From positions 1 through 64,000 of IMG/VR virus record IMGVR_UViG_3300048813_000107: DNA of 64,000 nt. The stretch is one strand, 5' to 3'. Below, in pieces: positions 52,633 to 57,971 of the stretch; position 1 is the first letter of the stretch, and each line of letters begins with the position of its first letter. A program made the translations under genes and the position numbers. This DNA comes from a virus. Below the pieces are notes generated by a model that was not told where the DNA came from, did no database searches, and worked only from the letters and a program-made list of their open reading frames with translations.

Positions 52633-54105
52633 CTAGGCCGGCACGACTTGACACCGGCACGACGGATGAGCAGGCGCATCAGCGTCTCCGCTGGGGTACG
52701 CCTGACCCATCCTCACCCGGCCTGCCGCGGCGTTCAGCAGGCAGCCCGGGCACACATTCGATGCCGGGTCATTCAGCCATTCGCCGTACTGGATCTGCCG
52801 CAGCAGGTACAGCGCCAGCGCTGCGGCCCCGATCCCGATGACCAGCTGACCGAGCACTGACCCGCTGGAGTTATCCCGGTCGGCCAGGACCGCGACGAGG
52901 GACGCGCCGATCGCGACCGCGCCGAGCCCCGACGTAACGCCGTCGACCAGCGCCCGGCCGAGCCTGGTCATGTACCCGCCGGCCATCTGCTGCGCGGTCT
53001 CGTCCGAGGTGGCCAGAGCTGCGGACAGGCTAGCGCCGAGCCCGAGCGCTTCTACCCGCTGCTGCGCGGTGTTCGTGTCCCCCGGCTGCCAGCCGCCGAG
53101 ATCCGCGCTGCCGCCGTCGGTCATCGCCGCGGCCGAGGCCCCGCCGATCAGGTGAGCGTCAGCCAGGATGCCGGGTACCAGCGGCGCGATCACGGGCACG
53201 AGGTCCAGGCCCTGGCCGGCCAGCCACACCGCTGCGGCGTCGACAGCCTCACGCTTGCCCTGGTCGCCCTGCTCCTCGGCTGGGTGCTCCGCGATATAGG
53301 CGCGCGCTATCCGCTCGGCCTGGGCCTTCGTCAGCGCCCCGGAAAGAGCAGCGGCGAGGAGAGGCGCCCAGTGCCCGACGGCCTGGAGGTCCAGGTCCCA
53401 GCCGGGCCAGTGGCGGGCCTTACGGCCTTTTGGGACGCTCGGTGCGCCGCCTCCACCGCCGTTCGTGATAGCGGACTTGGCCACGTCACCGTCCGGGTAG
53501 TCACCATGGAACGGGTCTATGCGCGCCATCCCGCAGTACCAGCAGCACGGGGAATCGCCGTCCGGCCGGAACGCGTGGCTGCCGTAGTCCTGGCCGTCCG
53601 GGTAGGCCTTGGCTATCGCCGCCATCTTGCCGCTGACAGACGCGCCGTCATCGTGGCTGATCGATCCGTCAGCGTGCTGCCAGCCGTTCATCTCGTCGTA
53701 CACGACCGGGGTGCCGCACGGGCAGGTGGCCTCGTCGCCCTCATCCGGGCAGCCGAGAGCGGCTATCACGGCGTCGATGTCGGCCAGCAGCTCGGGACGT
53801 ACCGCAGGGTTGCCGGGCAGGTCGGCCGGGTTCCACCATGCAATCGTCTCCGTGCCCGAGCAGTCGCCGTCCGGGTCGGAACCGAGCTGGCGGTCGAAAA
53901 TGTCAAGGTCGGCCTCGCTGGCGATGGTGTAGACAAAGCCCTGGTAGATGCCGTTGGCGCTCGTCCAGGTGCCGGTCCACTCGCCGTCAGGGAAGTTGAG
54001 GCCGGTCTCTTCCTGCCATTCCCGTGTCGCGGCAGCGCGGGGTGATTCCGCGCCTTCGATGTGACCGCCGGGTATCTCGAACTTGCCCGCAGCAGGGTCA
54101 GGCAT
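52633..54105 (-). CDS. NUDIX (C-terminal part) plus MuF-like minor head protein
   Basis: Complete Nudix box GHIEGAESPRAAATREWQEETGL; MuF end VCPGC..N...PAHPSCRC. Confidence 0.85.
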   Translation of the reverse strand: MPDPAAGKFEIPGGHIEGAESPRAAATREWQEETGLNFPDGEWTGTWTSANGIYQGFVYTIASEADLDIFDRQLGSDPDGDCSGTETIAWWNPADLPGNPAVRPELLADIDAVIAALGCPDEGDEATCPCGTPVVYDEMNGWQHADGSISHDDGASVSGKMAAIAKAYPDGQDYGSHAFRPDGDSPCCWYCGMARIDPFHGDYPDGDVAKSAITNGGGGGAPSVPKGRKARHWPGWDLDLQAVGHWAPLLAAALSGALTKAQAERIARAYIAEHPAEEQGDQGKREAVDAAAVWLAGQGLDLVPVIAPLVPGILADAHLIGGASAAAMTDGGSADLGGWQPGDTNTAQQRVEALGLGASLSAALATSDETAQQMAGGYMTRLGRALVDGVTSGLGAVAIGASLVAVLADRDNSSGSVLGQLVIGIGAAALALYLLRQIQYGEWLNDPASNVCPGCLLNAAAGRVRMGQAYPSGDADAPAHPSCRCQVVPA

Positions 54106-54114
54106 GCGGCCCCC

Positions 54115-54438
54115 TCAGGCGTCGGCGCTCCCGTGGTGACCCAGGCCGCCGATAGCGAGCGCATCGTCGTTCGCGAACAGGGCCTTGATATCGGCCAGCG
54201 GCAGGCCGTCCAGCGTGATCCAGCAGGAACACAGCGCGGTTGCCGAACACATCTCGCCGCAGTCCTCGCAGCGCCACGGCGGACACTCGCCGCAATGCAG
54301 CGACGGGGACAGGTCGGTCGGGTCGTCCGAGAGCGAGTGCTTGACCGCGCCACAGTTCCGGCACGCCAGGATCGGCGTCAACGCCTGCTCGGCCGGGTCA
54401 AGCTGCTGCCACTCCCAGCCGTGGACCGGCTCATTCAT
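54115..54438 (-). CDS. Cys-rich gene inserted inside the NUDIX coding region
   Basis: CRNC, CGEC, CEDC, CSC; flanked by GCCTGA repeats. Confidence 0.7.
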   Translation of the reverse strand: MNEPVHGWEWQQLDPAEQALTPILACRNCGAVKHSLSDDPTDLSPSLHCGECPPWRCEDCGEMCSATALCSCWITLDGLPLADIKALFANDDALAIGGLGHHGSADA

Positions 54439-57400
54439 CAGGCTCTACCGCCCTTTGCAGCATCAGCACCCGGCCAGTGTCCGCAGCAAGGACAGCAAGC
54501 CCCGCCACGGCTACCTCGCCAGCAGCCTTGCGGACAGCGAGCCTGCCGCCGTCGTTGAGGTTGTGCGCCTGTACCGGGCCGACCGCGCGGAACTCGAAGT
54601 CGTGCCACTCCCCGGCCTGCCGCCGCTTCCTGCGGAAGTTCCTGAACACGGTGAGCTCGGACTTCACCGCCGCAGTGCGCGCGGCCTCCTCGTCCACGGC
54701 GACGACATAGTCCGGGATGATGACCTGCGGCTTGCCGTCGTCATCCTCGCCAGGTCCGTCGTAGCCGTAGATCCCGGTGTCGCTGGTGATCCCCGCCGTG
54801 GGTGCGCCTTCGCCTTCCTTGGCGACCGTCCCCGGCTGCTGCGGTCCTGCTGGCGGCAGGGCGGACGGGCCGTACTCCTGCTCGGCCAGCGGCTCCCCGA
54901 TCAGCGGCGGGGACGTGACGACGCCCTCGACGGTGGTGAATGCCTGATGCGGCAGGGAGGCCCCCGGCTCGGGCGCGGCCGTCGCCTCGTCTACCGGGCC
55001 CGCGACCGAGTCCAGCGAGATCAGCGGGATCGGCCCGGCGCGGGAGGAGAAGATAAACCGCGGCACCGGGACCGGATCGGACCAGCCCCACCGCTCCTCA
55101 CGGACCTCGCTGGTCGACACGGTGCCGTTCTTGATGTAGATGTCATCAGCCTGCGCCTGGGCCAGCCGGTCGTCCTGCTCCTCGCCGCGGTCGAACTGGT
55201 GCTTCAGCGGCAGCCCGAGGTCATCCTGCAGGAACCCGGTGATGATGCCCTCGACGTGGTTCTCCAGCGGCAGCTCGCCGACCTTGTGCACCACGTCGGC
55301 CTGCGACTCGCCAGATGACCTGTTGACATCCTCCGTGAATCCGAGGTCGCTAGGCACCGTGTGATAGGCGGCCAGCGTCTTGCGCATCAGGAACAGGCTG
55401 AACTGGTCGCTGAAGTCCTTCTCGTTGCTCCACGCGAACTTGGTACCGGGCGGCATCCACTTGATCTGGTGCTTGCCAGCCTGGTCGCCGTACATCATCG
55501 CGTCCCAGTAGACCTGGAACGCCTCGATCTGGTCGGGGCTCCAGGTCTCCGGGGCCGCGGCGAAGGCAGCAGGAAGATTGCCGGCTGTGAACCGTTCCAA
55601 AAAGTAGAGCTGGAACCTCATATCGGTGTTGGCGCACCATGATGGATAGCCATTCCTGCGCACATACAGCGTCTTGTTGGGAACGCTTACGCAATAGACC
55701 TTGCCCTCATAGGGAACGGGCTCAACGTCGATGCGATAGGCCGGCTTACGGCGAGTCTGGATTTGCCACCGCTGGTGATGGGCCGGCTTTGCCGGCTTCC
55801 CCACAGGACGCACCGCCCCAGAATAACCGATCTTCTGCAAAACCTCCTGCAGGCCATCTGCGAGGCGCTTGCTGCACGTGGACACGATCTCCGTGCGAGG
55901 ATAGATGGCCCCGTCACCCAGGACGTAGAAGTGCCAGAAAATCTCAAGCTGGCGCCGGGACATCCCGAGCACCTCGCGCGGGATGTACTTCTCATGCGCC
56001 TTCCCGAATGGCCGCAGGTAGTCGGCCAGCGCCGTATGGCCGAAAGTGAAGGCGCCCCGGTGATACGGGGCTTCGCGTCCGAGCATCCGCGCCAGCAGAT
56101 CGCGGAACTCCACATAGCCCTTGGAGAACTCCTCCTGCGCGATGGTGATGTTCGAGCAGTCTGGCCTGACGCATCCCTCCGACAGGTACATGCCCATGAA
56201 GGCGGCGAAGTCGTCGCCTTCAATGCGGCTGCTGAAGTAGTGCGCGTCTTCCCGGATGACGCCGCGAGGCAGTCCGTAGGCATCGCGGATAGCTTCGGCC
56301 GACGCCCGGCGCAGGCGCTCGCCTCTTTCCGCCCGGCGCAGTGTGGGATGAGTGATGCCGAGGCTGCAAGCCGGGAAGCCGGCGTTTGCCCGCGCCTCGC
56401 GCACCGCCTCCCCGTCCATGCGCACGAAGTCGCACGGGCTGACGGGAAGCGTGAAGCACTCAAGGTCGGGGGCGCTCCAGGTGCTCGTCGCCGGGCACCT
56501 GACGCCCGCTCCCCCGCCGGGAAGCGCGGACTGGTACTCGTAGAGGTCCGCGGCGTGAACCAGCCATTCGCTGCCGTGCCTGACGCCCGGACAGCCGCTG
56601 GGCAGGCGGTTGACCAGCAGCCGGTGGCCGCCGGTGACGAGCAGGTCCGCGTTCCTGGACGCGGCGTGGTACATGATGCCGTCGGAGTCGGCCTCGTAGT
56701 ACCTGGTCGCCGATTGCCACTCAAACGCAGCGGTCGCGGGATTGCGCGTCGCGAACCTGTCTGAGCTGATGTCCGCCTCTGCGAACCGCAGCCAGCCGCG
56801 GTCTGTCAGAACCTCGGTGTCGTCGCTGTAGCAGTTCGCGTTCAGGATTATGCTTTCCAGTGGCGCGTACCCATACAGCGAGTTCGGGCGCGGACGGAAT
56901 GGCTCGTAGATAATATCGTCCCTGGTCAGCCAGTTCCAGGGCAGGCCATTGACGTACTGAACATACGCCTCCGCAGGCGGCTGAGGCGGATTCCCCCAGT
57001 AGTCCAACAATGGCGCTATTGTCGTTCCGTCGATCACACTCAAGCCTACCACTTTACCGCCGCGATTACGCAGCCGGTAAAGCGCTCCCGCATCATAAGC
57101 GAGAATGTCATAAAGGTATTTGGCAAGCCACGTGCTGAACGAGCTGATCCGGTCGGGCTTCTTCAGTGCGACCATGCCGATCTTAACGGCATCCTCGACG
57201 TCGCTATTGAATCCGTCGGCCGCGACCAATTTCCAGTCCAGTGACCGGATTGAGTCGATGCGATGCCAAATCGCGATCTGCGCGATGTCATAGGAGTCGA
57301 CCAGCCCGCGGAGCGTCTCGAAGCTGACCCGCTCGTGGATCCTGGGCCGGGTGGCAATGTTCGTCCCGGTGACGAAATCCTGTGACCTCGGGCGACGGTC

Positions 57401-57559
57401 GTAGCCGTCATAGGGTCCGATGGGCGTACCGGGCGAGAACGGGGACGCCGGGGTCATCTGCGAGGCTTCTTCGCCCTCGCGGAACGACTCCGGCGTGCCG
57501 GGGCCGAACACCTTGGCGACGCGGGTCAGGCCGTCATGGATGCGGGAGCGGACGCCCAT
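54431..57559 (-). CDS. Portal protein with intein and C-terminal NUDIX N-fragment
   Basis: IDGTTI, YVQ, DDIIY.P..RPNSLYGYAPLE, VPSDLG; ends VAGLAVLAADTGRVLMLQRA. Confidence 0.9.
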   Translation of the reverse strand: MGVRSRIHDGLTRVAKVFGPGTPESFREGEEASQMTPASPFSPGTPIGPYDGYDRRPRSQDFVTGTNIATRPRIHERVSFETLRGLVDSYDIAQIAIWHRIDSIRSLDWKLVAADGFNSDVEDAVKIGMVALKKPDRISSFSTWLAKYLYDILAYDAGALYRLRNRGGKVVGLSVIDGTTIAPLLDYWGNPPQPPAEAYVQYVNGLPWNWLTRDDIIYEPFRPRPNSLYGYAPLESIILNANCYSDDTEVLTDRGWLRFAEADISSDRFATRNPATAAFEWQSATRYYEADSDGIMYHAASRNADLLVTGGHRLLVNRLPSGCPGVRHGSEWLVHAADLYEYQSALPGGGAGVRCPATSTWSAPDLECFTLPVSPCDFVRMDGEAVREARANAGFPACSLGITHPTLRRAERGERLRRASAEAIRDAYGLPRGVIREDAHYFSSRIEGDDFAAFMGMYLSEGCVRPDCSNITIAQEEFSKGYVEFRDLLARMLGREAPYHRGAFTFGHTALADYLRPFGKAHEKYIPREVLGMSRRQLEIFWHFYVLGDGAIYPRTEIVSTCSKRLADGLQEVLQKIGYSGAVRPVGKPAKPAHHQRWQIQTRRKPAYRIDVEPVPYEGKVYCVSVPNKTLYVRRNGYPSWCANTDMRFQLYFLERFTAGNLPAAFAAAPETWSPDQIEAFQVYWDAMMYGDQAGKHQIKWMPPGTKFAWSNEKDFSDQFSLFLMRKTLAAYHTVPSDLGFTEDVNRSSGESQADVVHKVGELPLENHVEGIITGFLQDDLGLPLKHQFDRGEEQDDRLAQAQADDIYIKNGTVSTSEVREERWGWSDPVPVPRFIFSSRAGPIPLISLDSVAGPVDEATAAPEPGASLPHQAFTTVEGVVTSPPLIGEPLAEQEYGPSALPPAGPQQPGTVAKEGEGAPTAGITSDTGIYGYDGPGEDDDGKPQVIIPDYVVAVDEEAARTAAVKSELTVFRNFRRKRRQAGEWHDFEFRAVGPVQAHNLNDGGRLAVRKAAGEVAVAGLAVLAADTGRVLMLQRAVEPDE
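55628..56833 (-). mobile_element. Intein (402 aa) with LAGLIDADG endonuclease and XRE-like HTH insert
   Basis: C1 CYSDDTEVLTDRGW; block B LVTGGH; FMGMYLSEG and FYVLGDG; VYCVSV..WCAN followed by Thr. Confidence 0.93.
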
Positions 57560-57590
57560 TGAGCCGCCCCCTCGCTGCCATGATGGGCGG

Positions 57591-57971
57591 GTGAGCAACG
57601 AGGAGCTAACCGCGTGGGCGCTGACCAGTGACGGGCCGGACTGCGAGCCGGATGTCAGCTTCGGCTCGTTCTACGGCTGCGTGACGGCCGGGCGGTGGAT
57701 TGCGGGCGTGATGAGCTGGTCGGATTCCCCGCTCTGGGTGGACACGATCCTGCTGGGCGAGGACCGGTTCGTGATCCGGCCCCGCGTCCGGGTGTCGCCC
57801 GGGCGGACAGCGTGGTTCAACCTGGGCGGCTGGCCAGCAACCCCCAGGAGCCGCTGGCCGGCGCCGGACATCAACCCCGTGGCGTTCACCGAGCATGTGC
57901 TCAGCCGGCCGCTGGACTGGCTTCGCGACGATGAGCGGCAGGACATGCGGCGGATCTTCGGGCTAAGCTAG
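57591..57971 (+). CDS. Antisense inserted gene, hypothetical
   Basis: CATGAT-6nt-GTG. Confidence 0.6.
   Translation: MSNEELTAWALTSDGPDCEPDVSFGSFYGCVTAGRWIAGVMSWSDSPLWVDTILLGEDRFVIRPRVRVSPGRTAWFNLGGWPATPRSRWPAPDINPVAFTEHVLSRPLDWLRDDERQDMRRIFGLS

Follow-up and report, generated by a model that had tools for sequence, protein, structure and literature searches.

The DNA considered here is a stretch of 64,000 nucleotides of an IMG/VR virus record (IMGVR_UViG_3300048813_000107), hereafter the window, whose coordinates are used throughout; the full viral record measures 74 kb. At least 16 sequencing runs of peat and permafrost, from many studies, contain the record, with 0.7-1.0 of the sampled words of the stretch recovered; the phage collection yielded no near-identical DNA for the region. 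On the minus strand of the window, a NUDIX hydrolase domain is divided between two genes. Its first two strands form the C-terminus of the portal protein, its remaining three quarters open the gene of a MuF-like head protein (NUDIX-MuF), and between them lies a small gene for a Cys-rich protein, ORF107 (Table 1). This arrangement, proposed in an original prediction made from the letters alone, is confirmed by the open reading frames (ORFs) and by Pfam.

The portal ORF ends ...VLMLQRAVEPDE-TGA (...GEVAVAGLAVLAADTGRVLMLQRAVEPDE-TGA) and the NUDIX-MuF ORF starts MPDPAAGKFEIPGG (MPDPAAGKFEIPGGHIEGAESPRAAATREWQEETGL). The ATG of ORF107 overlaps the last portal codons, and its TGA falls inside the second of three GCCTGA words, 9 nt before the next ATG. 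These words were found where they had been reported, at 54443-54438, 54120-54115 and 54103-54098, as was the GAGGGGG sequence ahead of the downstream ATG; GGGAGG-type sequences occupy the equivalent place in other split lineages. Since the starts and stops overlap or are closely spaced, a Shine-Dalgarno sequence is present and no promoter-like or terminator-like site was found among the portal, ORF107 and NUDIX-MuF, all three ORFs look expressible, as had been proposed. The listed portal ORF begins with TTG, 13 codons 5′ of an ATG at 57559 that aligns with the start of Sonali gp3, a fused homologue described below, and that is probably the real portal start.

Table 1. Features of the divided NUDIX locus, in window coordinates.
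Feature	Position	Strand	Description
Portal ORF	54431..57598	-	1055 aa; contains an intein; C-terminus reads as the first two NUDIX strands
Intein in portal	55628..56833	-	ORF residues 256-657, ~400 aa, between ..LNAN and TDMRF..
N-terminal NUDIX strands	54449..54514	-	VAVAGLAVLAADTGRVLMLQRA; 3′ end of portal gene
Cargo slot	54100..54436	-	337 bp extra relative to fused homologues; from junction alignments
ORF107	54115..54438	-	107 aa, Cys-rich cargo gene; from ORF reading
GAGGGGG, Shine-Dalgarno-like	54110..54116	-	4 nt 5′ of the NUDIX-MuF ATG
NUDIX-MuF	52633..54105	-	490 aa; C-terminal three quarters of NUDIX and MuF-like head protein
Nudix box G-x5-E-x7-R-E-W-x-E-E-x-G-L	53998..54066	-	NUDIX-MuF residues 14-36

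Pfam recognises NUDIX (PF00293) in residues 4-96 of NUDIX-MuF with an E-value of 2.5e-10 and a score of 40.9 bits, against a gathering cut-off of 21.1, the match covering profile positions 26-118 of 134. Because the match begins only at position 26, this ORF lacks roughly the first 25 positions of the profile. The Nudix box is perfect, agreeing throughout with G-x5-E-x7-R-E-U-x-E-E-x-G-U; a complete alpha/beta/alpha NUDIX fold is not found in a single chain, its first two strands sitting in the portal gene. The portal matches phrog_2662 (E 1e-36). Interrupted by the intein, its domain scores 34.9 bits against the Pfam portal family (PF04860) and so falls short of the 39.1 cut-off. Profile matches lie on both sides of the intein, and the protein is collinear with Sonali gp3 at 41-45% identity in two blocks that flank it. 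The intein itself is missing from Sonali gp3, which leaves an alignment gap from portal residue 256 to 656, and PHROG matches to intein-bearing families fall on portal residues 253-330 and 622-663. In one relative (L010), an intein occupies another portal site, near AQI / IWHRID. NUDIX-MuF is collinear over its whole ORF with residues 563-986 of Sonali gp3, its residues 260-489 match the C-terminal part of phrog_2662, and the homologues P0007, P0022 and P0028 carry the Pfam MuF domain (PF04233). It is from the collinearity with annotated fusions and from these PF04233-bearing homologues that the protein takes its putative MuF identity.

Unsplit homologues exist. The NUDIX part of NUDIX-MuF, the third ORF of the locus, matches the Arthrobacter phages Sonali and Mufasa8 within one ~1000-aa gene that follows the terminase gene. 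Sonali gp3 and Mufasa8 gp3 are single portal-NUDIX-MuF proteins, the former annotated as 'portal and MuF-like fusion protein', with the junction ...TGRVLMIQRCLDPE-DPAAGTWEFPGGH. Scans of viral, genome and metagenome contigs yielded 173 loci with the motif DPAAG..E..GG, and in 141 of them the N-terminal strands stand in the same frame just upstream, making the fused form the majority among the motif loci. The strands VAGLAVLAADTGRVLMLQR of L012, a fused homologue, line up with the opening strands of NUDIX proteins of known structure, e.g., 1sjy, and the strands of the window portal tail are identical to those of L012. The same alignment places the cut point in the loop before G-x-W-x-x-P-G-G. 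The portal tail thus reads as the beginning of a NUDIX fold and, judged from these comparisons of sequence, the ancestral portal-NUDIX-MuF fusion is real. The earlier proposal that such a fusion was split is borne out both by the fused majority and by the single clade that the split forms make up (see below).

The loop at which the domain is cut tolerates insertions, since an in-frame Zn-ribbon module of ~50 aa (CPCG...W.HADGSISH) is found at exactly this position, just 5′ of the DPAAG motif, in eight fused loci (L042, L044, L071, L074, L099, L148, L168 and L182). An equivalent CPCG...W.HADGSISH module is present in the window after the NUDIX domain, at NUDIX-MuF residues ~127-152. Relatives of the MuF part (L014:348-4520; P0052; P0013) have other enzymes in the place of NUDIX, namely a 2H phosphoesterase (HxT motif; PF13563 in P0052) or an ADP-ribosyltransferase (PF03496 in P0013). 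The enzyme between portal and MuF appears to be a swappable module.

Querying with the third ORF brought up about 30 distinct proteins, 400-510 aa long and 44-98% identical, all of which begin at the same residue: M (or V), then S/P/A/T, then DPAAG. One of these split-form proteins, P0015, is encoded on a 10.1-Mb contig that belongs to the Streptacidiphilus sp. PAMC 29251 genome record. In a tree of the C-terminal part of NUDIX (126 rows), all 30 split forms make up one clade with a Shimodaira-Hasegawa-like approximate likelihood ratio test (SH-aLRT) value of 99, and a single change on the tree suffices to explain them. Both flanks of the gap are available in eight split lineages (the window, L010, L020, L021, L025, L126, L130 and L134). 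The portal ends LQRA-x-x-P-x-x-stop in five of the eight, one codon past the point at which fused proteins continue into DPAAG, and the portals of L020, L025 and L130 extend 6-12 residues beyond that point before their stop. The downstream gene is preceded in all eight by a GGAGG-like sequence and opens with ATG or GTG, one NCC/CCT/ACT codon and GAC/GAT CCT/CCG. The cut appears to be old, inherited and kept through long divergence. A minimal split or a programmed frameshift was also weighed for a locus from an Actinomycetota metagenome-assembled genome (MAG; L097, 2940-3060). The locus carries a single extra T at the same junction (GAC GCC TGA C GAC CCG), that is, a 1-nt frameshift without an insert; since further frame breaks follow downstream, both readings were set aside in favour of a probable read error.

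The junctions also bear on the size of the added DNA. Four residues separate LQRA and DPAAG in fused homologues (LQRAMDPD-DPAAG in L012), and removal of 337 bp (54436..54100) from the window gives AVEPD-DPAAG. The 340-bp deletion between the outer GCCTGA copies does restore the frame, as the original prediction held, but it leaves a loop one residue shorter than that of every fused homologue; because the fused forms have four residues at this point, the extra DNA is best placed at 54436..54100. The outer GCCTGA copies correspond to the codons GAG-CCT-GAT (E-P-D) and ATG-CCT-GAC (M-P-D), and the word occurs 81 times in the window versus 46 expected. Shorter pairs are found elsewhere, with CCCGA upstream and TCCGA downstream in L010, GCCCG on both sides in L025 and CCTGA on both sides in L126. 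Given these similar pairs in other split lineages, GCCTGA is not a fresh target-site duplication; the pattern is either inherited with the junction or follows from ancestral D-P-x-D-P codons. No terminal inverted repeats of the insert were found, nor is there a second copy of it in the 74-kb record. A self-contained 340-bp insert that is flanked by a 6-bp duplication and peculiar to this phage is not supported, the junction being present in at least eight lineages around unrelated cargo of 325-771 nt.

The gap is occupied by unrelated small genes in the eight split lineages. In the window it measures 325 nt and holds the Cys8 protein ORF107 in forward orientation, and in L130 (371 nt) a protein of the ORF107 family (38.8% identity, E 3e-19) is encoded on the opposite strand. 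L021 has a reverse gene for a DUF6221 protein (538 nt), L126 a reverse gene for a Cys-rich 123-aa protein together with a second small ORF (615 nt), L134 a reverse homologue of the L126 protein at 75% identity (401 nt), L010 a reverse gene for a 179-aa protein (561 nt), L025 two further proteins, in reverse (771 nt), and L020 a candidate reverse ORF of 132 aa (360 nt). Opposite-strand cargo was counted in six of the eight lineages. The two unrelated reverse cargo genes of L021 and L130 both begin MAGMS, and these lineages share the DNA CATGCCCGCCAT beside the downstream junction, just 5′ of the NUDIX-MuF ATG. The eight gaps have no sequence in common beyond their flanks, the window and L010 inserts show no residual similarity past them, and none of the eight slots is empty. 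The gap appears to be a slot where small accessory genes are exchanged in either orientation, and there are hints that this exchange proceeds by recombination at conserved slot borders.

The ORF107 family comprises 82 representative clusters and has a conserved LADIKALFA-like helix and eight conserved cysteines of two-zinc type (C26, C29, C49, C52, C57, C60, C70 and C72). Its AlphaFold2 (AF2) model is a confident one, with a predicted local distance difference test (pLDDT) value of 84, and no credible match to this fold was returned by Foldseek against PDB and BFVD or by the protein atlas. Pfam and PHROGs give nothing for ORF107 nor for most of the other cargo genes. A single-protein scan of viral contigs found no relatives of ORF107; those in M. 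abscessus prophages are located among ordinary small early genes.

Selection has acted on both halves of the divided domain. The N-terminal strands are under strong purifying selection: they are identical or nearly so in the eight split and in many fused lineages, and over their 24 codons the pairwise differences among the eight split lineages sum to 21.5 nonsynonymous versus 291.5 synonymous, with a nonsynonymous rate (dN) of at most 0.06 and a synonymous rate (dS) that runs from 0.2 to saturation. Across 21 split-clade proteins, whose mean column identity is 43%, residues G14, E20, R28, E29, E32, E33 and G35 of the Nudix box are invariant, as is the DPAAG..E..GGH stretch. The NUDIX residues do not appear to be decaying, and relaxed selection, one of the signs of decay named in the original prediction, was not seen.

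The association of the two halves was modelled with NUDIX-MuF residues 1-125 and the last 89 portal residues in three runs. The complex scored 0.66 (runs 0.66, 0.66 and 0.70) versus 0.00 for the best control; in a benchmark, the same mark is reached by 58 of 80 solved complexes and by 2 of 110 mismatched pairs. At least 79% of the contacts agree among runs, and the pLDDT of the partner is at least 47. The predicted interface pairs portal tail residues 63-85, which are the two NUDIX strands, with NUDIX-MuF residues 5-16, 52-67 and 86-93. In the model, the NUDIX sheet would be re-formed in trans, a prediction that speaks of likeness rather than of binding.

Excised or spliced forms were sought in contigs from two DNA and two RNA-library runs. 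One DNA contig covers the entire region, and RNA-library contigs cross the portal/ORF107 (54188-55000) and ORF107/NUDIX-MuF (53963-54165) junctions unspliced. No joint skipping the insert was found in the contigs of these four runs, from which rare forms may escape; because contigs drop rare variants, this negative is weak evidence. No match to Rfam intron families was obtained, a permissive threshold giving chance-level matches only, and the insert does not qualify as an intein, being out of frame and having its own stop and start. An RNA-level mechanism is further argued against because relatives carry reverse-strand cargo.

From what is directly seen, namely the anatomy of the locus, its fused relatives, the single origin of the cut, the variable cargo and the selection on both halves, we consider it probable that a gene was broken into pieces long ago and has been maintained in that state, its halves complementing each other as proteins and its gap serving as a slot for accessory genes. 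Since the cut is old and shared and the gene in the gap differs from lineage to lineage, the halves most likely re-join as proteins. The ancestor would have been one portal-NUDIX-MuF polypeptide, in which an insertion would have hit the surface loop that joins the second NUDIX strand (..LMLQRA) to the one preceding the Nudix box (DPAAG.FE.PGG). Two genes would have resulted, a portal with the first two NUDIX strands at its end and a NUDIX-MuF that has a Shine-Dalgarno sequence and an ATG to itself. This divided state would then have been retained and the gap turned into a slot for small accessory genes, filled in the window phage by a forward gene for a putative Cys8 zinc protein, with its start and stop abutting the flanking genes. 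The C-terminal strands of the portal would complete the beta-sheet of NUDIX-MuF in trans, which would give back an active hydrolase and, at once, anchor MuF noncovalently to the portal. The enzyme, whose substrate we infer, just as we do its complementation in trans and its head packaging, would be packaged in the head and released on infection.

A more far-reaching version, which can be offered only tentatively, takes the split enzyme as an assembly latch and the DNA gap as a conserved landing pad for swappable accessory genes. NUDIX-MuF would be unable to fold without the two strands of the portal tail, so that the hydrolase would become active only once docked; up to 12 copies would be held in the head, and a free effector would emerge at ejection. 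The slot genes, possibly serving lysogeny, defence or counter-defence, would be held in place by the need for both halves.

Several points weigh against the complementation of the halves or against parts of the history just proposed. In two of the three complex runs the partner pLDDT is below 50, and the complex score may reflect only the model's memory of NUDIX folds, since the split domain belongs to a well-known fold; the reassembly foreseen in the original prediction is thus upheld in silico only, with a pass that may be owed to that memory. The N-terminal strands could perhaps be conserved for docking or for a portal role alone, without catalysis. The window NUDIX-MuF has no match to the Pfam MuF domain (PF04233) at E<=0.01, and ORF107 bears no nuclease or transposase signature in Pfam, PHROGs or fold searches. 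Finally, L015 is uncut at the first site yet falls within the split clade (99/98). Either its first cut was healed by recombination with a fused relative, a tentative suggestion given its short row and long branch, or the short tree of 121 columns misplaces it. L015 is of interest in its own right, as a 374-aa ORF (L015:2282-3406, plus strand) cuts its NUDIX at a second site, after ..FVYTIPREADL. This ORF has two LAGLIDADG-like motifs and repeated C..C...H.. zinc motifs, identified by eye, and the remaining C-terminal part of NUDIX resumes as a TTG-started ORF (= P0048). The second-site cut is the classic genes-in-pieces pattern.

Some of these objections would be accommodated if the domain had been split and had then decayed. 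The fragments would no longer associate, the C-terminal part of NUDIX would be inactive or independent of the N-terminal strands, and the portal tail would be kept for another reason, e.g., a function in the portal crown or linker length. The possible fold memory behind the complex model suits such decay, as does the predominance of the fused form, which is presumably optimal. Nevertheless, we hold it to be unlikely, given that the N-terminal strands are nearly invariant despite saturated synonymous sites, that the Nudix box is invariant across the split clade and that a NUDIX domain lacking its first two strands is unlikely to be stable, as judged from the general make-up of the fold and from the alignment of L012 with solved structures. 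Far less probable, and largely refuted, is the view that a small mobile element arrived recently in this phage and left GCCTGA as a 6-bp target-site duplication. The exact 6-bp direct repeats at both ends, together with the frame restored by deletion between them, had made this attractive. However, the same junction is shared by a clade of about 30 with unrelated cargo, the insert has no terminal inverted repeats and is single in the record, the M. abscessus relatives of ORF107 keep company with ordinary early genes, GCCTGA is a very common word here, and the 340-bp deletion leaves a loop one residue short of that in every fused homologue.

The chance that the insert is removed by a recombination switch in the DNA or as an intron in the RNA, giving a fused protein in some cells, is slighter still. 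The frame-restoring direct repeat would allow it, and the portal gene has an intein, so the phage tolerates self-removing elements. Yet neither a skipping joint in the contigs of the four runs nor an intron family match was found, no recombinase is encoded in the gap, and six of the eight related inserts are reverse-strand genes without common sequence or structure; this part of the original prediction is not sustained. An artefact of assembly or sequencing, whether a chimeric contig or a frameshift error, can be dismissed for practical purposes. The Actinomycetota MAG mentioned above does shift frame by 1 nt at this site and breaks frame again downstream, probably through read errors, but the stretch is recovered at 0.7-1.0 of sampled words in 16 runs, independent contigs span the region, and split forms occur in many samples as well as in the Streptacidiphilus genome record.

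Small unrelated genes, often in reverse orientation, that sit at a fixed position, with conserved late genes on either side, and vary among close relatives are characteristic of the moron or accessory-gene hotspots in the structural operons of temperate phages. Unlike in those hotspots, the slot described here lies within a former single protein domain and is never empty in the eight lineages with context. Ultra-small mycobacteriophage mobile elements (MPMEs) of ~340-440 bp carry one small ORF and a short terminal direct repeat, and in this the insert is like them. It differs from them, and from elements that generate target-site duplications, in that it lacks terminal inverted repeats, occurs only once in the record and encodes nothing resembling a transposase.

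In the Aeromonas phage Aeh1, nrdA is split by the mobE homing endonuclease gene, a case of 'genes in pieces', and the NrdA fragments come together through protein contacts, with neither RNA nor protein splicing involved (Crona et al. 2010, PMC3045599). As in Aeh1, an inserted gene has turned a gene that is whole in relatives into two ORFs, both pieces have been kept, and the new junction tails are short, here with one extra codon on each side. Unlike in Aeh1, the intervening gene is not a recognisable endonuclease, varies by lineage and takes either orientation; ORF107 matches no nuclease family or fold, in contrast to the 374-aa ORF of L015 with its LAGLIDADG-like motifs. Moreover, the cut falls here inside a small single-domain fold, where assembly would be beta-strand complementation, and the pieces are two structural head proteins, which assembly would also tether.

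Fusions of portal-MuF and other head proteins to NUDIX, 2H and ADP-ribosyltransferase (ART) effectors have been described, together with the proposal that phages load the enzyme into the head and inject it (Iyer et al. 2017, PMC5512222; Iyer et al. 2022, PMC9503650). The locus resembles those fusions in the order of domains, portal, NUDIX and MuF, within a late operon, and differs from those single polypeptides in that NUDIX itself is divided between two genes; no mention of a split NUDIX was found in the passages of these papers that were consulted. A cut in a small domain shared by portal and MuF, its persistence throughout a clade and the turnover of cargo in the gap appear to be new, no description of these three features having been found in the literature searched.

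Enzyme fusions to portal and MuF proteins are thought to be a phage route for packing effectors into the head, and the present locus provides a natural experiment in which the same enzyme is either covalently fused, as in most relatives, or divided between structural proteins, as in about 30 lineages. Without complementation between the halves, this would be an ordinary fragmented gene. If they do complement each other, they would represent a compact natural case of fragment complementation that docks a cargo protein on the portal, with a defined pair consisting of a tail of ~25 residues and a domain of ~120, and they would show how phages can neutralise gene fragmentation without splicing. 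The variable gap, for its part, is a place to look for accessory genes of actinobacterial phages, including the Cys8 family with its 82 cluster representatives.

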